A stretch of 8,354 nt of DNA from a virus (lineage: Duplodnaviria; Heunggongvirae; Uroviricota; Caudoviricetes), in the IMG/VR virus record IMGVR_UViG_2671180574_000007, positions 1-8,354 of that record. One strand, 5' to 3'. Below, in pieces: positions 1 through 8,354 of the stretch. The position numbers were made by a program, and so were the translations under genes. Below the pieces are notes generated by a model, which made no database searches, was not told the DNA's origin, and worked only from the letters and a program-made list of their open reading frames with translations. The stretch's first letter is position 1, and the number at the start of each line of letters is the position of its first letter.

Positions 1-122
1 GAAGCATGGGCTGAGCGGCAGTTAAAAAAGGTAACTAGGTAACAAGGTTGATTTTTCCGGAATCTGTGGTAAATTCGTCATAACGATGGGCGTTTTATGC
101 CTGACGTTAGAAGAGTTTCTAC

Positions 123-146
123 AACCCGCCGCCGAGCGGGTTTTTT
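123..146 (+). terminator. Rho-independent terminator (stem cccgc/gcggg, 6-nt loop, T6 tail)
   Basis: Hairpin 125-129/136-140 with flanking A-T pairs, followed by TTTTTT at 141-146; sits downstream of a frame-1 stop at 40-42. Confidence 0.6.
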
Positions 147-266
147 ATGACTGAAATCGCGTCAGTACAGTAAACGCGCTGGTGGCGGTGAATACCTGTC
201 TTTCAGCTTGCTGGCTTTTTCGACAAGAGTTATTGGTGTGTCACGTTAACCGGAAAAGGAAAAGAC

Positions 267-464
267 ATGCTAAAACAGCAGGATATGACAGAAACCGCCA
301 GAGTGGTGTTTAATGAATTAAGCGTTACCGAACCGGCGACAGTCGGGGAGATAGCGCAGAATACTTACCTTTCACGCGAACGCTGCCAGTTAATACTGAC
401 CCAGCTGGTTATGGCGGGTCTGGCAGACTATCAGTTCGGTTGTTACAGACGCCTTCCGCAGTGA
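267..464 (+). CDS. Small winged-helix DNA-binding protein, FaeA/PapI-like (hypothetical regulator, 65 aa)
   Basis: ATG with AGGA-type Shine-Dalgarno about 8 nt upstream; pattern VVFNEL...TVGEIAQNTYLSRERCQLILTQLVMAGL resembles PapI/FaeA-type small winged-helix regulators; intrinsic terminator overlaps the stop codon. Confidence 0.5.
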   Translation: MLKQQDMTETARVVFNELSVTEPATVGEIAQNTYLSRERCQLILTQLVMAGLADYQFGCYRRLPQ

Positions 465-476
465 AGGCTTTTTTAT
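450..476 (+). terminator. Rho-independent terminator overlapping the stop of the 65-aa ORF
   Basis: Perfect 6-bp stem gccttc(451-456)/gaaggc(463-468), 6-nt loop, then TTTTTT(469-474)ATTTG. Confidence 0.65.
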
Positions 477-493
477 TTGTGGTAAATGGGCGG

Positions 494-582
494 CTGGTGG
501 GTGTTAGGGGCACCCACCAGCCATCTGCTCATGCGTTGGGTTCACAAGCAAACCTCAGGCCCACTGCTTTGCGCAAAAGCAG
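494..582 (+). promoter_or_regulatory. Structured leader upstream of the methyltransferase gene (two stable hairpins, neither terminator-like)
   Basis: Perfect 10-bp inverted repeat ctggtgggtg/cacccaccag (494-503/511-520, 7-nt loop) and 7-bp stem ctgcttt/aaagcag (564-570/576-582); no T-run after either. Confidence 0.4.
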
Positions 583-614
583 AATGAGCCTATCAGAGAC
601 AGGCTTAATGATCC

Positions 615-1673
615 ATGCTTAATACTGTAAAAATATCCAGTTGTGAGTTAATCAACGCCGACTGCCTGGAATTTATCCGGTCGTTACCCGAAAATTCTGT
701 TGACCTGATAGTCACGGACCCGCCGTACTTTAAAGTGAAGCCTGAGGGCTGGGATAACCAGTGGAAGGGCGACGATGATTACCTGAAGTGGCTGGACCAG
801 TGTCTGGCGCAGTTCTGGCGGGTGCTGAAACCTGCCGGAAGTCTTTACCTGTTCTGTGGTCATCGCCTGGCATCTGATATCGAAATCATGATGCGTGAAC
901 GCTTCAGTGTGCTGAACCATATTATCTGGGCGAAGCCGTCCGGACGCTGGAACGGATGCAACAAGGAAAGCCTGCGGGCGTATTTCCCCGCCACAGAGCG
1001 CATTCTGTTCGCGGAACATTATCAGGGGCCGTATCGTCCGAAAGATGCCGGGTATGCGGCGAAGGGCAGTGCACTGAAACAGCATGTGATGGCCCCGCTG
1101 ATTTCTTACTTTCGTGATGCGCGAGCTGCCCTGGGGATAACGGCAAAACAGATTGCAGATGCCACAGGAAAGAAAAACATGGTGTCGCACTGGTTCAGTG
1201 CCGGTCAGTGGCAGTTGCCGAATGAAAGCGATTATCTGAAATTACAGGCGCTGTTTGCCCGGGTGGCAGAAGAGAAGCATCGGCGTGGTGAACTGGAAAA
1301 GCTCCACCACCAGCTGGTGGATACGTATACCTCACTGAACCGGCAGTATGCGGAGCTGCTGAGTGAATATAAACATCTGCGGCGGTATTTTGGCGTGACG
1401 GTGCAGGTGCCGTATACCGATGTGTGGACGCATAAACCGGTGCAGTTCTATCCCGGGAAACATCCGTGCGAAAAACCGGCAGAAATGCTGCAGCAGATAA
1501 TCAGCGCTAGCAGTCGTCCGGGTGACCTGATTGCAGATTTTTTCATGGGGTTGGGTTCGACAGTGAAAGCGGCACTGGCGCTCGGGCGTCGTGCAATTGG
1601 CGTTGAGCTGGAGACTGAACGTTTTGAGCAGACGGTTCGGGAAGTACAGGATTTAGTCAGCCAGAACGGATGA
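615..1673 (+). CDS. DNA methyltransferase, beta-class (motif IV before motif I), probable N6-adenine specificity; orphan (no adjacent restriction enzyme)
   Basis: 352-aa ORF; N-terminal LIVTDPPYF (motif IV, DPPY) and C-terminal DFFMGLGST (motif I, FxGxG AdoMet site); central insert with HTH-like/coiled-coil segment typical of a target-recognition region. Weak Shine-Dalgarno. Confidence 0.88.
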   Translation: MLNTVKISSCELINADCLEFIRSLPENSVDLIVTDPPYFKVKPEGWDNQWKGDDDYLKWLDQCLAQFWRVLKPAGSLYLFCGHRLASDIEIMMRERFSVLNHIIWAKPSGRWNGCNKESLRAYFPATERILFAEHYQGPYRPKDAGYAAKGSALKQHVMAPLISYFRDARAALGITAKQIADATGKKNMVSHWFSAGQWQLPNESDYLKLQALFARVAEEKHRRGELEKLHHQLVDTYTSLNRQYAELLSEYKHLRRYFGVTVQVPYTDVWTHKPVQFYPGKHPCEKPAEMLQQIISASSRPGDLIADFFMGLGSTVKAALALGRRAIGVELETERFEQTVREVQDLVSQNG

Positions 1674-1713
1674 TATTGAAGAATTAATTACGCGTCGTTA
1701 TTATGCGGCTCCC

Positions 1714-1789
1714 GGCCCTTTAGCTCAGTGGTGAGAGCGAGCGACTCATAATCGCTTGGTCGTTGGTTCAAACCCAACAGGGGCCACCA
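1714..1789 (+). tRNA. tRNA with anticodon CAU, tRNA-Ile2-like (lysidine-dependent AUA decoder); elongator tRNA-Met not excluded
   Basis: Hand-folded cloverleaf: acceptor 1714-1720/1779-1785 (one G-U), D-stem gctc/gagc, anticodon stem agcga/tcgct with loop cTCATAa (anticodon 1747-1749), T-arm gttgg-ttcaaac-ccaac, discriminator A, encoded CCA. Acceptor and anticodon stems resemble E. coli ileX-type tRNA from memory. Confidence 0.85.
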
Positions 1790-1797
1790 TATCTATC

Positions 1798-1836
1798 AAG
1801 GGGTTACGTTAACAGCGTGACCCCTTCGTTTTTTCT
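1798..1836 (+). terminator. Rho-independent terminator downstream of the tRNA
   Basis: 7-bp stem aaggggt(1798-1804)/acccctt(1820-1826) with structured loop, followed by cgTTTTTT (1829-1834). Confidence 0.65.
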
Positions 1837-2115
1837 AGGATACCTATAGGATACCGTGACAGAGTATAAGCAGGTATAAAAACAACAAGTTACGCAACAT
1901 CATACCTGTCATGAAACTTTAACTATCCGACATGATAGCTGGTCGATGATCACGGATAATCCGTTATGTGGATCCCCATATCGGCATCAGGCCCACCAGC
2001 GTGAAGCGTTTTTCATTTTTCGCGGGTATAAAAAATCGATGGGGCTGGCAGTCCGGAAGACGTCAGGGTACAGAGATTTGACCCGCCCCTCCCTGTGCAT
2101 GGGCACAATAAGTAA

Positions 2116-2139
2116 CCGAAGGCGGAATTCCGCCCTCGG
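2116..2139. repeat. 24-bp near-perfect palindrome (11 of 12 pairs) centred on GAATTC
   Basis: ccgaaggcggaattccgccctcgg; T-rich flank on the minus-strand side, so it could act as a weak terminator for the convergent minus-strand cluster. Confidence 0.55.
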
Positions 2140-2172
2140 TACTCACATATGAGAAACGATATTTCTTCCTCT

Positions 2173-2253
2173 GATACCCAAAATATGGGTATCACAAGTA
2201 ACCCCCAAAATCTGGGTGTTGCTCTTACTACCCAAACTACGGGTAGTTTCCGT
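2173..2253. repeat. Three tandem 27-bp units, each containing a dyad-symmetric core ACCCAAA-N4-GGGT
   Basis: Units 2173-2199, 2200-2226, 2227-2253; cores gatacccaaaatatgggtatc (perfect 8-bp arms), aacccccaaaatctgggtgtt, actacccaaactacgggtagt; centre-to-centre spacing 27 bp. Confidence 0.7.
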
Positions 2254-2265
2254 AATTTCATGGTC

Positions 2266-2285
2266 GAGTTGCAGATCTGCAACTC
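2266..2285. repeat. Perfect 20-bp palindrome centred on AGATCT
   Basis: gagttgcagatctgcaactc, 10 of 10 pairs; no U-run on either side. Confidence 0.7.
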
Positions 2286-2330
2286 ACCCACCAGCCAACG
2301 CAATTTTGCGTTATCGGGAATATCAGCAAG

Positions 2331-2618
2331 TTACCGCCGCAGCCGTTCCGGCTTCTTCCACTGGTAAGTATTTTTCGCGCTCTCCCTCCGTTGTTGAGAA
2401 CGGCGACGGTATGCCAGCAACTCAAGGACTCTTGTTCGTATGTTGCGCATATCCACGCCGTTAAGCTCAATACCGTCACGGAGCATCACCTCAGCCACCA
2501 CACGCGCGTAATTTTCAGCGGTGACTGTATCCGGCTGCGCGGCCTGTTCGTCAGCCAACTGGCTGATTCCACCAGCACAGCGGATTAATCGCAGTATTTC
2601 AGATTCGGTCATTATCAT
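2331..2618 (-). CDS. Hypothetical 95-aa protein translationally coupled to the small terminase gene; possibly a truncated remnant
   Basis: ATG at 2616-2618 overlaps the TGA of the upstream gene (ATGA coupling); Arg-rich C-terminal tail (RRRSQQRRESAKNTYQWKKPERLRR) runs into non-coding palindromic DNA; no recognisable motif. Confidence 0.45.
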   Translation of the reverse strand: MIMTESEILRLIRCAGGISQLADEQAAQPDTVTAENYARVVAEVMLRDGIELNGVDMRNIRTRVLELLAYRRRSQQRRESAKNTYQWKKPERLRR

Positions 2619-3100
2619 GCCTGTTTTGCGACCTCATTCACTACGTCATTTTTTACCATCCGGCTGATAATCTGATTACGCAAATCGTCAATAATTGACT
2701 GCACTCTGTTTACTGCCATCGGTTTAAGCCCGGCATCACGTGCCAGAATATTGGGGAGTTTTGCCAGTTCCTCGCTTACGATTTCCCCCCATATAGCCAT
2801 CTCTTTTCGCACATCATCGGCGGGTATGAGTTGCGCCGTTTCCTGTTCGAACTTGAGGCGCTCACGTTCGGACTGATACCAGGCCTTACGGTCATGTGGC
2901 TCCATTTCTTCCAGTGATGCCGGAACGGGAAGATCAAGAAAACAGGTCAGAATGTCAGTCACCCGATAGAGTTTCAGCTTGTCATGCCCTCCGGCTGGCT
3001 GGATGTTTTTCAGCCTTGCCGCCGCAGTCTGACGACATATTCCCGCTATCGCCGCCAGTTGATTAATGTTCAGCATCAGATTTTTCAGTTCTCGATCCAT
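2615..3100 (-). CDS. Terminase small subunit, lambda Nu1-like (DNA packaging protein), about 161 aa
   Basis: Start placed at the internal ATG (3098-3100) preceded by GGAG 5 nt upstream; the six-frame ORF extends to 3187 without a Shine-Dalgarno. N-terminal HTH pattern LNINQLAAIAGICRQTAAARLKN...GG..KL.LY and downstream helical region align by eye with lambda Nu1. Confidence 0.65.
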   Translation of the reverse strand: MDRELKNLMLNINQLAAIAGICRQTAAARLKNIQPAGGHDKLKLYRVTDILTCFLDLPVPASLEEMEPHDRKAWYQSERERLKFEQETAQLIPADDVRKEMAIWGEIVSEELAKLPNILARDAGLKPMAVNRVQSIIDDLRNQIISRMVKNDVVNEVAKQA

Positions 3101-3371
3101 ACCCGCTCCAGAATGTTTTAAACATGCATCTTGCGAACAACTTTCAGAAGAGTTCAAAAAATGCGCTATATGTTGAGCATAAAACAAGCAAAACTAACAT
3201 ACCAAAAATAAAAATACTTAAAATTCAATATCATATGAAGATGATGATGACGAATGAAAATGCAAAAACTAGCCTTTTTCCGCGCCGCTCCCGCCCCGCG
3301 GCAGGCCACCTCACCGGGAGGACCCACCCAAAAAAGGCGACTGTCACTATTGTTTATGCTCCATGAGCGAC

Positions 3372-3393
3372 AAAACCGCCCGCAGGCGGTTTT
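3372..3393. terminator. Bidirectional intrinsic terminator hairpin
   Basis: aaaaccgcc-cgca-ggcggtttt: 9-bp stem including A/T arms, 4-nt loop; T-run on both strands; lies about 18 nt downstream of the gpI-like stop on the minus strand. Confidence 0.65.
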
Positions 3394-3410
3394 ACATAAA
3401 ACGTTTTGTA

Positions 3411-4052
3411 TCAGCGACCAATCACCACAATCTGGCCGCCATCCCCTTCATCTGCCGTGCTGATCTCTTGCGAAATCACCCGCGACCCGACGCGCATTTC
3501 ACCGTACAGAACAGGCACAACATTGCCCTGGGCAACCATGTTATCCAGAGAGGAGAAATAGGTGTTCTGCTTACCGTTATCCGTGGTGCTGGCTGTTGCT
3601 GTGCTGGCTTTCGGTGCCAGCATCTGTGCAACACCACCAAGTGTCATCGCCGCCCCCATTGAAAAGAGAATGTCACTGAAAGCGATACTGATTCCTGGCA
3701 TCCAGATTGCCGTAGCAATCAGCGCCGCACCAAGCACCGCCTGAAACACGCCGCCACTTTTGGCACCAGCCAGACGCGGTACGATGTGGATCACGGCACC
3801 ATTTTCCAGCGGTTCATTAAGACGGGCTGATAATTCGTTTTCGCCTGTATCACGCCCGGCAATACGCACCTGATACCAACCATCGCTCAGTTTCTGACGA
3901 AACGCTGGGATCTGCATGGCCAGCGCCCGGATGGCTTCGGCCCCCGTTTTCACATGAAGATCGATGCGGCGGCCAAATCGTTGTAAATCCCCGTAAAGGC
4001 AGATGCGTGCCATGCCCGGTGACGCCAGAGGGAGTGTGTGCGTCGCTGCCAT
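3411..4052 (-). CDS. Phage lambda gpI-like tail (tip) assembly protein
   Basis: 213-aa ORF with N-terminal ubiquitin-like region, central hydrophobic Gly/Ala-rich segment and C-terminal block TTDNGKQNTYFSSLDNMVAQGNV.PVLYGEMRVGSRV.SQEISTADEG that matches lambda tail assembly protein I as recalled from memory; GAGAGG Shine-Dalgarno about 10 nt upstream. Confidence 0.6.
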   Translation of the reverse strand: MAATHTLPLASPGMARICLYGDLQRFGRRIDLHVKTGAEAIRALAMQIPAFRQKLSDGWYQVRIAGRDTGENELSARLNEPLENGAVIHIVPRLAGAKSGGVFQAVLGAALIATAIWMPGISIAFSDILFSMGAAMTLGGVAQMLAPKASTATASTTDNGKQNTYFSSLDNMVAQGNVVPVLYGEMRVGSRVISQEISTADEGDGGQIVVIGR

Positions 4053-4141
4053 TTGTCGGTATACCTCTCTCGTTTGCTCAGTTGTTCAGGAATATGGTGC
4101 GGCAGCTCGCCGCCCCACGTGTTCAAAGTACCGCCTTGTTG

Positions 4142-6055
4142 TCATGCTCCATTCGATTTCAGCAATCCACGATAATCGAGGGCCGCGACACCTGCATCTA
4201 TGCGCACCTTCCAGGCGACACCATCAACAGTAAAGCCCACCTGCTCCTCAAGATATGGCGTATCCATACCATCAAGATAAGCGACTTCTATTGTGTCCAT
4301 CCCCTTAGCTGCGGCTACATACCATTCCTTGCTATTGGCCTTATCAAGACGTGGCTCAACAATTACTTCTGCCATATCTTTCACAACGTTAATGATGCCG
4401 GGGTTCTGATTGATAGTGCCCTCATCACCAACCGGAAAGACTGATGACGATGACAGAATGGCGCGACGCGCGGCAGATTCCAGCGCGGCAGGGACCAGAA
4501 CAAAAGCAGGGGTAATATTCAGTGAGTCGCCGTTAGCATCCTCCTGGAGGCGCATCAGCTTACGGGCTTCATCAAGCCCCACCATGTCCATATCCTTCGC
4601 AATAAGATTTTTATGATCGGCATGGAATAACGCTTTACCATCCGTAAACTTGCCGTTGCTGGTTAACAGGAGATAAACCAGATTGCCAACTGTTCTGGCG
4701 GCTGCGCGTCCCATCGCCATGGGGATTGTAGTTAACTGGGTCAGGTCATCGTTGATAATGGCCTGACGGGTAACGGAAAAAATATTCCCGTACGTGGCCA
4801 GCGCAATAGGTACACCTTTATCGCTGGTGGTGATGTATTTATATTCCGCACCTTCCGGTACTTTATCCAGCTTTGAAAAACCATTCAGACCAACGCGCTT
4901 TGCTTCATGAAAGTTTGAAAGCGAACCGGTACGCGTCCATTTCTGGAACGTTTCGCCGCTGTCCTGCCAGCCTTTCAGTACAGATTTTTCAGCCCCACCA
5001 GCCAGAATATGAGAAAAATCACTGCTGCTGTGTGTAAAAGCCGCATTAACAACCTGCGAGCGATTAATAAAACCACTCACAGTGATACCACGATCAACCA
5101 GTGATGCCTGGGCCATTTCAAAAAGGCTCATCATCGCGTAAGGGTTGCCTCGTTCAGGGCGTTCATACCCAAGACGGGAATAAAGCCCCTGACGAATTGC
5201 ATCACCTGTTATGTTTCCGTTTCCGGCATAGATATGAGGCGGGGTATTTTTATTGGATGGCGTGGACTCGCGCCCCAGCTCGTTCAACAGCTTTTCACGG
5301 GCCATTTCCGGTGTACATGATGCATCTTCCAGACACGCCATTTTGATCCCGTCGTAACGACTGCCGAACAGGCTAAACACTTCACTTATTCCATTGATGC
5401 GTTTCTGTTCATTACCAGCAATATTTGCCGCTCCCTGTGGCGGTGTAATCATTCCTTTAATGGTTTCCGGCATATGTAAAAAATCTCCTGTGCGCTTCGA
5501 TTCAATTCGCGCCATTGCTCTGACGGATGGCAACAATTCATCAGCAAAACCGTGCTTAAGGCATTCTTTCCCGTCCATCCAGGTTTCATCTTCCAGCATG
5601 GCGGTAATTTCCTGTGCTGATTTGCCCGTTTTTCTGGCATAAGCAGGGACTAACACGGTTTCCACCTTATCCAGCAAATCAGCATAATCACGCATATCAC
5701 CAGCATTTCCGCCAGAGATACCCCACGGCTTATGTATCATCATCATGGCGTTTTCCGGCATCACAACACGATCGCCAGCCATTGCGACCACCGAAGCCAT
5801 TGAAGCCGCAACACCATCGATATAAACCGTAATGTCTGCCGGATGATTCCGTAGCAGGTTATAGATGGCGATGCCTTCAAACACATCACCACCTGGTGAA
5901 TGGATCCTCAGATTGATATGTGAAACATCGCCAAGGGCTTTCAGGTCTTCCGCGAACTGCTTTGCAGTAACACCGAAGCCGCCAATCTCCTCATAGATAG
6001 ATATATCCGCCGCTCCGCGAACATCCGCCGCCTTAATGGTGTACCAGCGATTCAT
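4142..6055 (-). CDS. Fusion protein: ClpP-like (S14) prohead protease N-terminal domain plus HK97-fold major capsid protein C-terminal domain
   Basis: 637 aa; N-terminal ...LRIHSPGGDVFEGIAIYN...GVAASMASVV...MMIHKPWG... carries ClpP catalytic Ser/His context; C-terminal roughly 330 aa has capsid-like architecture (motif-level assignment, weaker); ATGA overlap with upstream small ORF. Confidence 0.75.
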   Translation of the reverse strand: MNRWYTIKAADVRGAADISIYEEIGGFGVTAKQFAEDLKALGDVSHINLRIHSPGGDVFEGIAIYNLLRNHPADITVYIDGVAASMASVVAMAGDRVVMPENAMMMIHKPWGISGGNAGDMRDYADLLDKVETVLVPAYARKTGKSAQEITAMLEDETWMDGKECLKHGFADELLPSVRAMARIESKRTGDFLHMPETIKGMITPPQGAANIAGNEQKRINGISEVFSLFGSRYDGIKMACLEDASCTPEMAREKLLNELGRESTPSNKNTPPHIYAGNGNITGDAIRQGLYSRLGYERPERGNPYAMMSLFEMAQASLVDRGITVSGFINRSQVVNAAFTHSSSDFSHILAGGAEKSVLKGWQDSGETFQKWTRTGSLSNFHEAKRVGLNGFSKLDKVPEGAEYKYITTSDKGVPIALATYGNIFSVTRQAIINDDLTQLTTIPMAMGRAAARTVGNLVYLLLTSNGKFTDGKALFHADHKNLIAKDMDMVGLDEARKLMRLQEDANGDSLNITPAFVLVPAALESAARRAILSSSSVFPVGDEGTINQNPGIINVVKDMAEVIVEPRLDKANSKEWYVAAAKGMDTIEVAYLDGMDTPYLEEQVGFTVDGVAWKVRIDAGVAALDYRGLLKSNGA

Positions 6056-6261
6056 TGTTCCCCCACCGATGCAAAACCATTCTGATTAAGCCAGGTGTTT
6101 ACGGCATGTCTGACAATCTGCGCCACACCTGGTAATGGTTGGTCAGGATGATGATTTATATGGTCGATCCTGTACTGCTTAAGGCGCATAACGGTCTGCG
6201 CATCCAGATGAACGGAACCACCTCTGGTATCACCTGTGTTCAGGTCATTAATACAACTCAC
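6052..6261 (-). CDS. Hypothetical 69-aa protein, first gene of the capsid operon
   Basis: GTG start with strong GAGGAAG Shine-Dalgarno 5 nt upstream; stop overlaps the fusion-gene ATG; AT-rich putative promoter region upstream (6262-6360). Confidence 0.55.
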   Translation of the reverse strand: MSCINDLNTGDTRGGSVHLDAQTVMRLKQYRIDHINHHPDQPLPGVAQIVRHAVNTWLNQNGFASVGEQ

Positions 6262-6361
6262 AGCAACTTCCTCTGACTGACTAAACTATGCACATTATTG
6301 ATCTATAAAAGTGGTAAATAAACATATTTCTATCATAAAAACAGATTAATTAGATTCAGAC

Positions 6362-6387
6362 ACAAAAAAGCCGGATTTCTCCGGCTT
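6362..6387 (-). terminator. Rho-independent terminator on the minus strand between the origin and the capsid operon
   Basis: 8-bp stem aagccgga/tccggctt (6368-6375/6380-6387), 4-nt loop; on the minus strand followed by TTTTTTGTG. Confidence 0.7.
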
Positions 6388-6514
6388 CTGTCACTCGTTG
6401 CTTAAAACGGTATGTTATCCCCGTACGGATCATCATTCCCCGCCTGTTGTTTTGGTGTGCTTCGCTGTCATAGGCTTTATCTCACAGCAGTAAATTAAAA
6501 TTTTTGCGTTTTAA

Positions 6515-6745
6515 CCCTTCACCTGTTCACCTTTTGATATTTTCTCTATTAATTCATAATGTTAAGGGGTGAACAGTTTCAAAAAAACTATTCACCAACT
6601 GTTCACCACTGTTCACCCTTGAAGCTCAATAAACAATCAAAAAGGTGAACAGTGAATAGTTTGGTGAACAGTTCATAAATAACTGCTCACCCTATAATAT
6701 ACTGATATAAAAGATATTTATGACAGGGTGAACAGTGGTGAACAG
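6515..6745. repeat. Iteron cluster: putative P4-type replication origin (octamer TGTTCACC / GGTGAACA)
   Basis: Perfect octamers at 6524-6531(+), 6568-6575(-), 6600-6607(+), 6610-6617(+), 6644-6651(-), 6663-6670(-), 6727-6734(-), 6737-6744(-), plus degenerate copies (6517-6523, 6590-6596, 6652-6659, 6684-6691); AT-rich flanks; directly downstream of the primase stop. Confidence 0.8.
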
Positions 6746-6758
6746 TTATTCCATAAGT

Positions 6759-8354
6759 TTAATTTTTGCTATCGTCATTAGTGACCGATACACATGATGG
6801 CATCCAGTCTTCTGATTCCTCCGTCAGTGTCACGTTTGAACGCAAACCGTGCTTCGTTTTCCGTTTCATATACTCCCTGCCATATTCCGCCATTGCCCCC
6901 GGCATATCTTTACCGAAGCGCGTCAGTGTTACAGGTTTACCAAACCCATGTGCCCTCATATAAGCCAGATAGGCATGATAGAGATACCTGCGTGGGCTGA
7001 ATGGCACAATTTCAGCATTACCCACTAACAGGCCATCACACATTACCGACGCCATGAGATAGCCGCAGAAGTCCACCAGCGAATCCCCCTCTCGCTTTAT
7101 CGCCAGTGCTTCTTCAGATTTCTGCTGCTCATATAACAGGCGTCTGGCTTCGTCCTGGTCAGCAAACCGTGTAAGCAGATGGCGAATCACTACCGCCAGC
7201 TCACCTTCTATTTTTTCCGCCAGCATTGGATCACGTTCGTTCTCCGGTACAACTTCCGAAAAATTGAATATCACCCGACGACGTGAGATCCCCCCACTGC
7301 GGTCACTGAATGACATGGCGTTATTGTTAACCGCCAGCACTACTGCCGGAATACGCGTTGAGTAGGGGGCTTTGTGTTTCGGGTCAATTGCCACCTTGTC
7401 ACCGCCTGTAATAGCCTTAATCCCTGCCCCATCACCAGCGTAGCGGGTCATATCCGGCATGATAATCAGCGAAAAGCCAACCACTAACGCGCGTTCCCTT
7501 GCATCTTCCAGCGCCTTCATGCTTGCCGATACTGTGTTGGCCTTACCCGCCAGCATGGTGCAAATCTCCGCCATCACGCTTTTACCACTTCCCCCTGGAC
7601 CTGTTACCTCAATGAATAACTGCCAGTCGTACCGGTTCGCCAGCACCATGAATAATGCAGCCAGTACGCGATCCGCCTTGCGGTCATTCTCAGCCACCGA
7701 ACGGCGTAACCACTTCCAGAAATTCGGCGCATGTGTTGCCAGCGTTTCCCCCTCTGCTGGTGGGCTGAAAGGTAATTCACTGGCAATTAACAACCAGTCG
7801 TTTTTGTTATGCTCCCGAAAATTACCTGTTCTGGTATCAAATACCCCGTTACTGAATCCAATCAGGTTACGGGCTGTATTCCCCATAACAGGCAAACTTA
7901 ACTTCATGGTATCGACCGCCGATTTAATGGCGTTCTGCGAATAGCTGATCTCCGCATCAATGAAAATCTGCGCCATAGCTCGCTGTAATTCTTTATCCTG
8001 TACTGGCTCCCATACAACGCCGTTGTAATGGTGAACAGTGTCAGAGTCAGCATGAATCGCCAGTTCACCGCCATAATGTGCCAGGAGAACTTCGCCGCGT
8101 TGACTTGCTCCCATCTGGTTAAGCGCCAGTGATGAAGCGTTATCGTCTTTTACCCGCTCTTTTTTCTTTACAGGCAGTTCAACTACCTTTTTCTTTTCCG
8201 CCAGCTCTGCCCGTTCACGTTCCAGATATTCACGCCAGTTCTCCCGTTTCTGGCTGTGCATTCCTTCAGGGTAATAATCAGCATCCCTGACACCTGCCTC
8301 TGCCAGTTTCTGCCCGATGGTATTAACAAGCCCCGGACGCAATAACCCCGCCTG
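6759..8354 (-). CDS. Primase/helicase of the phage-plasmid P4 alpha family (C-terminal part; N-terminus beyond the window end)
   Basis: Reading frame stays open to the window edge (the 8342 start in the ORF track is a TTG, not the true start); Walker A GPGGSGKS; stop TAA at 6759-6761; followed by matching iterons. Confidence 0.85.
   Translation of the reverse strand, partial: QAGLLRPGLVNTIGQKLAEAGVRDADYYPEGMHSQKRENWREYLERERAELAEKKKVVELPVKKKERVKDDNASSLALNQMGASQRGEVLLAHYGGELAIHADSDTVHHYNGVVWEPVQDKELQRAMAQIFIDAEISYSQNAIKSAVDTMKLSLPVMGNTARNLIGFSNGVFDTRTGNFREHNKNDWLLIASELPFSPPAEGETLATHAPNFWKWLRRSVAENDRKADRVLAALFMVLANRYDWQLFIEVTGPGGSGKSVMAEICTMLAGKANTVSASMKALEDARERALVVGFSLIIMPDMTRYAGDGAGIKAITGGDKVAIDPKHKAPYSTRIPAVVLAVNNNAMSFSDRSGGISRRRVIFNFSEVVPENERDPMLAEKIEGELAVVIRHLLTRFADQDEARRLLYEQQKSEEALAIKREGDSLVDFCGYLMASVMCDGLLVGNAEIVPFSPRRYLYHAYLAYMRAHGFGKPVTLTRFGKDMPGAMAEYGREYMKRKTKHGLRSNVTLTEESEDWMPSCVSVTNDDSKN

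Follow-up and report, generated by a model that had tools for sequence, protein, structure and literature searches.

The window, by which we mean the whole 8,354-bp stretch of DNA analysed here, carries at its right end the 3′ 1.6 kb of an initiator gene (6759..8354, minus strand) that is annotated as 'DNA primase family protein' or Pri-Rep, runs past the end of the window and encodes 605 aa in full-length copies. Directly behind this gene lies a cluster of 12 iterons in two inverted modules of roughly 105 bp (6516..6744, no strand assigned), which we predict to be a replication origin and whose first iteron is 14 nt from the TAA stop codon of the initiator (6759-6761, minus). A preliminary description of this DNA had proposed a P4-type origin downstream of a 'primase' gene, and its placement is borne out. 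So is the intrinsic terminator that it put before the capsid operon (6358..6389, minus; hairpin 6389..6366 followed by a T-run, −18 kcal/mol, z = −3.9), at which the initiator/ori transcript stops before the late (capsid) operon. Between the last iteron and the terminator there are about 125 bp, which places the iterons within the transcript of the initiator gene. A tRNA is the only Rfam family detected in the window at gathering thresholds; none falls in the cluster or near it.

The cluster is built on the octamer TGTTCACC, with eight perfect copies in 6524-6744, three on the plus strand (6524, 6600 and 6610) and five on the minus strand (6568, 6644, 6663, 6727 and 6737), just as had been counted before. 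A ninth, the sole other perfect copy in the window, is isolated inside the initiator gene (8030..8037, minus) and is also present in L003, a complete copy of the element. Dinucleotide-preserving shuffles gave a mean of 0.29 copies per window and none of 200 reached nine or more; scaled to 230 bp, this rate corresponds to about 0.008 expected copies, so that the low chance expectation claimed earlier holds, whereas the figure given for it, 0.06, was some eightfold too high. The 'about four' degenerate copies reported alongside number exactly four: CCTTCACC at 6516-6523 (plus) and TATTCACT at 6651-6658 (minus), each with two mismatches and in register with relatives, and TATTCACC at 6589-6596 (plus) and TGCTCACC at 6684-6691 (inverted within its module), each with one. 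Because AC directly precedes nine of the ten perfect or one-mismatch octamers on their 5′ side, the repeat unit is longer than the octamer (acTGTTCACC).

Aligning both halves of the cluster with the origins of P4, vB_KppS-Ant and EcCICFT073 yielded a common module in which two adjacent iterons are followed by a spacer of about 35 bp, an inverted iteron and, about 12 bp further on, three iterons in tandem at intervals of 10-11 bp; the spacer is AT-rich except in the distal copy of EcCICFT073. Module A, the one distal to the initiator (6516..6617, plus), runs from the adjacent iterons 6516-6523 and 6524-6531 over a 36-bp AT spacer to the inverted iteron 6568-6575 and then to the tandem trio 6589-6596, 6600-6607 and 6610-6617, spaced by 10-11 bp. 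Its initiator-proximal counterpart, module B (6644..6744, minus), starts with the tandem pair 6737-6744 and 6727-6734 and continues over a 35-bp AT spacer to the inverted iteron 6684-6691 and the trio 6663-6670, 6651-6658 and 6644-6651. The same two-module layout recurs in vB_KppS-Ant, EcCICFT073, EcCIIHE3034, EcCIRM13514 and 12 other loci.

Set against a window average of 49.5% GC, the spacers of module A (6532..6567) and module B (6692..6726) have 19% and 20% GC, respectively, and are candidate unwinding regions, the former being the counterpart of the spacer of about 35 bp that separates the iteron pair from the inverted iteron in the P4 ori. The 26-bp centre between the inverted modules (6618..6643) has 27% GC. 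A tract on the distal side, next to the last pair of iterons (6485..6515), has 26% and a conserved equivalent, AAACGCATATTTTTTAATTTTAT, in relatives from other genera. AT-rich flanks had been described for the cluster, which is right for this distal tract, whereas most of the AT-rich DNA is in the internal spacers.

From position 1714 to 8354, the window is 98-99% identical to many E. coli chromosomes. One chromosomal copy, L004, adjoins a tRNA-Ile gene, itself after mug, and its genes run on the late side from a DUF1441 protein through a tail-assembly-I-like protein and a ClpP-protease/major-capsid fusion to the iterons and, past these, through the 605-aa 'DNA primase family protein', DUF4222, a hypothetical protein, an Icd-like protein, YlcI/YnfO, an HTH regulator and a further hypothetical protein to the integrase. 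L003 represents the whole element as a 10,790-bp circular record in one complete assembly; as a sign of episomal replication this circle is suggestive only, and the assembler may have picked up an excision product, in which case the 'plasmid' record would not stand for a maintained replicon. The two copies represent different variants, as L003 has an AlpA regulator and an EcCIIHE3034-type integrase and L004 an HTH_17 regulator, and the latter fits a group of PICIs that a preprint describes in 'tRNA-Met' genes, with a CLP_protease gene and without alpA.

The annotations of L003 and L004 comprise a size within the PICI range (about 8-15 kb; the window itself stops short of the int end), an integrase, an AlpA or HTH regulator, pri-rep, unidirectional genes and att, and no full virion set. 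None of psu, delta, sid and epsilon is annotated in either copy; since these genes, with int, alpA and alpha, form the core set of P4-like satellites (PMC8628076), the element is not P4-like by that definition. It is a Gram-negative PICI-type phage satellite of about 10.8 kb, neither P4 nor P4-like. As its DUF1441/TerS-like protein has no similarity to the EcCICFT073 late protein C_RS07025, we make no Rpp assignment.

To the left of the satellite, window 1-1713 is lambdoid-prophage late-regulatory DNA, with the 3′ end of an antiterminator gene and then a DNA methyltransferase, and the tRNA at 1714-1789 is a tRNA-Ile of prophage type, behind which ordinary prophages have two tRNA-Arg genes and the lysis genes. 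Given this prophage DNA and the type of the tRNA, the copy in the window appears to be inserted in a prophage-borne tRNA; none of the complete E. coli genomes contains at least 80% of the window contiguously.

The initiator combines D5_N, an SF3 helicase (DUF5906) and a C-terminal Pox_D5 and is 48% identical to residues 290-771 of P4 alpha, a span that covers the helicase and the origin-binding domain (OBD). Its own OBD, a winged helix (residues 497-593; 6798..7088, minus), is homologous to that of alpha, to which it is 47-55% identical and with which it shares the form of the wing; in sequence it matches 1KA8, the solved P4 domain, with an E value of 1.8e-24. As a single-sequence AlphaFold model of the domain was unusable (pLDDT 36), we replaced it with one from a 45-sequence alignment, which is of moderate confidence (pLDDT 70-78 in the core, 57.6 overall) and has 1KA8 as its sole significant Foldseek match (E = 5e-5), at a TM score of only 0.45-0.49. 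In this model, residues 571-574 and 577-580 form a predicted β-hairpin wing (KRKTKHGLRS, residues 571-580; 6837..6866, minus) that would follow two helices, the first of which holds the conserved tyrosines of wH helix alpha-2.

Whereas Pfam finds both a Zn-ribbon and a Toprim in alpha, it finds neither in the initiator, so that the 'primase' of the preliminary description is without the primase domains of alpha. For the N-terminal ~140 residues, which are shared with the EcCICFT073 initiator, the sole match is a PHROG of unknown function. A degenerate Toprim, considered for this part on account of the motif 'EVIIFAGSDAW', was rejected, as hhalign of the N-terminal profiles of the initiator and alpha (28 versus 44 sequences) aligned linker only, with a probability of about 1% and an E value of 0.056. 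With the Zn-ribbon and Toprim missing and the profile comparison negative, P4-style self-priming cannot simply be assumed, and an alpha-type initiator without a primase domain raises the question of who primes.

The OBD co-varies with the iterons. For 80 loci encoding relatives of the initiator, one per species, we determined de novo which 8-mer recurs most often in the 450 bp that follow the initiator stop, and the resulting octamers fall into four classes, with six loci lacking a clear class: class A, TGTTCACC / TATTCACC, at 62 loci including the window, vB_KppS-Ant and P4; class B, TGTCTACC / TATCTACC, at 7 loci including EcCICFT073; class C, TCTCCACC, at 5; and class D, TGTCCGCC / TGTCCACC, at 4. 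In the 78 clearly classed loci the octamers of the other classes are nearly absent, with one or two strays at 7 loci. Pairs of initiators from different classes can be 93-98% identical in the helicase core while their OBDs are only 67-71% identical, as with L006 and L014 (core 0.98, OBD 0.69) or the initiator of the window and L009 (core 0.93, OBD 0.70).

These between-class differences are concentrated at residues 568-585 and in the C-terminal tail. At residues ~570-585, class A reads KRKTKHG-----IRSNVTL, class B KRKQCTRGPDKGRTISNVLL, class C IRKKSTKG----NMRSNIRL and class D KKAESKKKATRGRIQSNITL; P4 alpha has the class A form (EKRHTKQG-----IQTNLTL), and in the EcCICFT073 initiator, placed in class B, the PDKGR insertion is missing and the OBD diverges further. 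Most DNA contacts of winged-helix proteins are made by the recognition helix and the wing (PMC2777425). Taken with the class differences and the modelled hairpin, this suggests that it is the wing that determines the bases at the variable centre of the octamer (TGT-TC-ACC, TGT-CT-ACC, TCT-CC-ACC and TGT-CC-RCC). The four natural pairings of iteron and wing offer a ready-made specificity-swap series for a winged-helix initiator.

The P4 record X51522 labels the TGTTCACC octamer 'ori type 1 repeat' at both ori and crr, which agrees with its earlier identification as the P4 type I iteron, and lists 16 such repeats, six at ori and ten in crr, consisting of TGTTCACC and one-mismatch variants. In a blastn search of 2.3 Gb of phage DNA, window 6550-6622 matched P4 ori 9304-9378 with 78.7% identity (E = 5e-6). 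Local alignment to the P4 ori gave 80% over 76 columns for module A (z = 25) and 72% over 109 columns for module B (z = 20); this is the best alignment of both modules and has the same orientation in each, whereas alignments to crr are shorter and reach a z of at most 15. Tocchetti et al. reportedly delimited, in 1999, a minimal ori1 that measures 123 bp and comprises six iterons and an AT region of 35 bp; a module of this type, with six iterons at roughly helical spacing and an AT-rich region of about 35 bp, is present twice in the window, in inverted orientation.

The ori of Gram-negative PICIs is located 3′ of pri-rep (Fillol-Salom et al. 2018, ISME J, PMC6092414). [quoted passage not shown] The cluster in the window is likewise 3′ of pri-rep, with iteron sets flanking AT-rich DNA in a shared organisation. 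Our reading, in which we have high confidence from sequence comparison, is that 6516-6744 is the vegetative replication origin of the ~10.8-kb Gram-negative PICI-type satellite. Its function as an origin would follow from homology to origins that have been tested, the one experimental precedent being EcCICFT073, in which the iteron differs and the initiator shows 49% identity.

The cluster might instead be a crr-like cis enhancer, that is, a site that the initiator must bind in cis while replication starts elsewhere in the element. It resembles crr in lying just downstream of the initiator gene and in its type I iterons, which include a tandem pair, a spacer of about 35 bp and an inverted copy; in P4, moreover, the iteron region directly downstream of alpha is crr and not ori, and the first half of each crr repeat resembles the module (z = 11-15 for module A). 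Yet crr is made up of a direct 120-bp repeat in two copies, each with five iterons in a different order, whereas the modules of the window are inverted, have six each and align better, and over more columns, to the P4 ori. The complete 10,790-bp element has no second cluster and just the isolated octamer in the initiator gene; nor did we find a second cluster in the related PICI-type loci, for which 6 kb to each side was scanned. For plasmid maintenance in EcCICFT073, pri-rep together with the single region that corresponds to the cluster was enough in the experiments cited (PMC6092414). We consider an enhancer of this kind highly improbable. The 'P4-type origin' first proposed is in essence upheld, except that the element is a PICI-type satellite and has no second site.

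Plasmid iteron arrays commonly serve both initiation and negative control, and the array in the window, itself transcribed, is situated between the early/replication and late operons. It might accordingly be mainly a regulatory array bound by the initiator, for copy-number handcuffing, autoregulation or control of the capsid operon, and not a start site. Such roles are compatible with origin function, as the two usually coexist. No sigma-70-like promoter was found in 5950-6900, and the array is set apart from the late operon by the terminator and then ~100 bp more of AT-rich DNA. The colinear region of EcCICFT073, moreover, behaves as an ori in the published plasmid assays (PMC6092414), and we give this possibility very little weight.

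The cluster might also be what is left of a P4-type origin that has decayed and no longer works, the initiator of the satellite having lost its primase domain; this would accord with the missing Zn-ribbon and Toprim and with the four of 12 iterons that are degenerate. The initiator ORF is intact, however, and 594 of 5,426 complete E. coli genomes (~11%) contain the ori region at 90% identity or more. Across 16 class A origins from eight genera, iteron columns, as defined from the window itself, are 90% conserved and spacer columns 70% (p = 2e-12). P4's own annotated iterons include degenerate copies, and an initiator of the same domain-truncated type works in EcCICFT073, so that a relic is hardly credible. 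A packaging (cos/pac) or recombination site, which the cos sites carried by PICIs and the adjoining morphogenesis genes might bring to mind, is exceedingly unlikely, as the repeats are the P4 alpha-binding octamer and not a terminase-type sequence and co-vary with the DNA-binding domain of the initiator, the attachment site is at the tRNA end of the element, some 4.7 kb from the cluster, and the cos sites of EcCICFT073 are described as separate lambda-like cosN regions.

If 6516-6744 is the origin, replication may proceed as follows. Pri-Rep, a relative of alpha that keeps the SF3 helicase and the winged helix, would bind with its winged helix the 12 acTGTTCACC iterons, which form two inverted copies of the module that occurs once in the P4 ori. 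Through cooperative binding, the hexameric helicase would be loaded and either or both of the spacers of 19-20% GC melted, after which bidirectional theta replication of the excised circle would ensue. With the modules side by side, a single site could do the job of the two distant sites of P4, ori and crr. The choice of iteron would be set mainly by the β-hairpin wing of the winged helix, and, as the initiator has no recognisable primase domain, priming would have to come from its N-terminal ~110-140 residues or from the host.

More speculatively, the origin of Gram-negative PICIs may not be a separate type of replicon but an inverted duplication of the P4 ori1 module joined to a primase-less derivative of alpha, its specificity having been switched repeatedly by exchange of the wing (at least four octamer/wing pairs), and the initiators of this PICI and of P4-like satellites may recognise each other's origins; we regard this as possible but rather doubtful. 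Cross-recognition is conceivable because this PICI and P4-like satellites share both octamer and wing form and are both common in E. coli, and, if true, it would lead to cross-activation or incompatibility between two satellite families in one cell. For the rest, the analysis is mostly confirmatory, yielding a well-supported origin on a satellite found in ~11% of complete E. coli genomes, the placement of which is useful for annotation and for PICI-based delivery vectors.

Compared with P4, the window shares with ori (ori1) an identical octamer, the same six-iteron module and an AT-rich spacer of about 35 bp, and with alpha a homologous helicase and winged-helix OBD with a common wing form, KRxTKxG-[IL][RQ][ST]N. 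The two differ in layout: P4 has one ori module and a distant crr, required in cis according to X51522, whereas the window has two adjoining modules, inverted and 26 bp apart, alone. The P4 ori is upstream of the early operon and not after alpha, whereas the cluster of the window follows the initiator gene; in P4 the terminator t-alpha comes before crr, and in the window the iterons come before the terminator. P4 also has type II repeats, of which the window contains no cluster (YCAYTTAAAG; one chance-level match at 3673), and its alpha has the Zn-ribbon and Toprim primase domains that the initiator of the window is without.

A further element for comparison is vB_KppS-Ant (LR881103), a capsid-forming, PICI-like element whose post-primase region is 74.5% identical to window 6492-6766 and has the same two-module TGTTCACC architecture, followed by a terminator and then a capsid gene. 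Unlike the element studied here, which has only the protease-capsid fusion, the tail-assembly-I-like gene and the TerS-like gene on its late side, vB_KppS-Ant encodes terminase, portal and head-tail connector genes.

Among PICIs proper, EcCICFT073 has its ori just 3′ of pri-rep, with 11-12 repeats arranged colinearly with those of the window around spacers that are AT-rich in most modules, and the same overall layout of int, small regulator, Icd-like, DUF4222, pri-rep, ori and late genes. Its initiator shares with that of the window, at 49% identity overall, an N-terminus unlike that of alpha. EcCICFT073 and EcCIIHE3034 have TGTCTACC/TATCTACC iterons and a different wing, whereas the window has TGTTCACC; the element has the ClpP-protease/capsid fusion and the DUF1441 TerS-like gene in place of the capsid, decoration and Rpp set; and its integration site, a tRNA(CAT) gene, is absent from the att sites in Table S1 of PMC6092414. 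According to the founding PICI paper, no other known bacterial replicon has this organisation (PMC6092414), whereas we find the building block of the PICI origin and the core of its initiator in P4 as well. In an incomplete search of the literature, from which we claim no priority, we found neither the homology of the PICI ori module and initiator core to the P4 ori and alpha nor the co-variation of wing and iteron stated, and full-text searches for the octamer returned unrelated primer sequences only. The published PICI EcCIRM13514 has nine TGTTCACC copies in the same order and arrangement as the window, and with the same octamer array present there, the cluster belongs to a kind of origin that has been described before, of which it is an ordinary example.

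Among 80 loci encoding relatives of the initiator, one per species (L006-L085), we found four iteron classes, TGTTCACC, TGTCTACC, TCTCCACC and TGTCCRCC, the first of these being the octamer of the window and of P4. The predicted wing, a beta-hairpin in the C-terminal winged-helix origin-binding domain (window 6837-6866, minus strand), co-varies with iteron class across these loci in both sequence and length, and the remainder of the initiator can be 93-98% identical between classes. The iteron/wing pairings are a natural specificity-swap series.

The initiator itself, annotated as 'DNA primase family protein', is encoded on the minus strand at window 6759-8354, with its full length at 14330-16147 of L004, an Escherichia coli chromosomal copy beside mug/tRNA-Ile, and contains neither a Zn-ribbon nor a Toprim primase domain. 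The sole match to the first ~140 residues of the protein is phrog_2850; this N-terminal part is shared with Pri-Rep of the published PICI EcCICFT073, and no profile similarity was found between it and the N terminus of P4 alpha. The coding region also carries an isolated perfect TGTTCACC (window 8030-8037, minus strand), which recurs at 4264 in L003, a circular record with the whole satellite, and, 32 bp from it, a copy with one mismatch (window 8062-8069, plus strand). Just beyond the distal iteron pair of the predicted origin lies an AT-rich tract (window 6485-6515) that is kept across genera, with the consensus AAACGCATATTTTTTAATTTTAT in relatives, and that could belong to the origin, perhaps as a site of unwinding or of host-factor binding.

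The Xenorhabdus and Photorhabdus loci (among L035-L084) encode full-length alpha-type proteins (~813 aa) in the same size class as P4 alpha, with only 1-5 perfect copies of TGTTCACC, located downstream of the alpha-type gene in a crr-like position. A P4-style ori would be expected upstream of that gene, and a search for perfect octamers alone, which covered this region, revealed no additional cluster within 6 kb upstream.

As for the late genes, a 69-aa open reading frame (ORF; window 6052-6261, minus strand) terminates with a stop that overlaps the start of the protease-capsid fusion gene. This ORF matches phrog_4934 (E = 5e-33) and is unannotated in the RefSeq copies examined. Two further minus-strand genes, one lambda tail-assembly-I-like (window 3411-4052) and one DUF1441/TerS-like (window 2615-3187; phrog_141, terminase small subunit), are the only tail or terminase genes in the satellite and adjoin a truncated 'phage tail protein' pseudogene in RefSeq copies. 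They possibly serve in helper interference or packaging redirection; the DUF1441/TerS-like protein has no detectable similarity to the one EcCICFT073 late protein with which it was compared (C_RS07025).

The left flank (window 1-1789) is lambdoid-prophage late-regulatory DNA, comprising the 3' end of an antiterminator gene, a small ORF (267-464), an N6/N4 DNA methyltransferase gene (615-1673) and a tRNA with anticodon CAT, annotated as tRNA-Ile (1714-1789). In ordinary prophages, two tRNA-Arg genes and the lysis genes come after this tRNA-Ile. The window has the satellite in their place, and its copy thus seems to lie within a prophage and not at the chromosomal mug/tRNA-Ile site. None of the complete E. 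coli genomes searched holds at least 80% of the window contiguously.

In one complete E. coli assembly, the entire satellite forms a 10,790-bp circular 'plasmid', pZ1323HEC0475-3 (L003, NZ_CP148328.1, 1-10790), which may be its excised, possibly self-replicating form. The integrase and AlpA module of this circle is of the type found in EcCIIHE3034, another published PICI, and the replication/late half is therefore common to PICIs with different integration modules. E. coli PICIs exchange whole replication modules, beyond wings alone. The published PICI EcCI042 (L087) has the same overall layout as the satellite but carries a RepA-family helicase where the satellite has its alpha-type initiator, followed by unrelated repeats, AAAGTGAGG (5204-5403).
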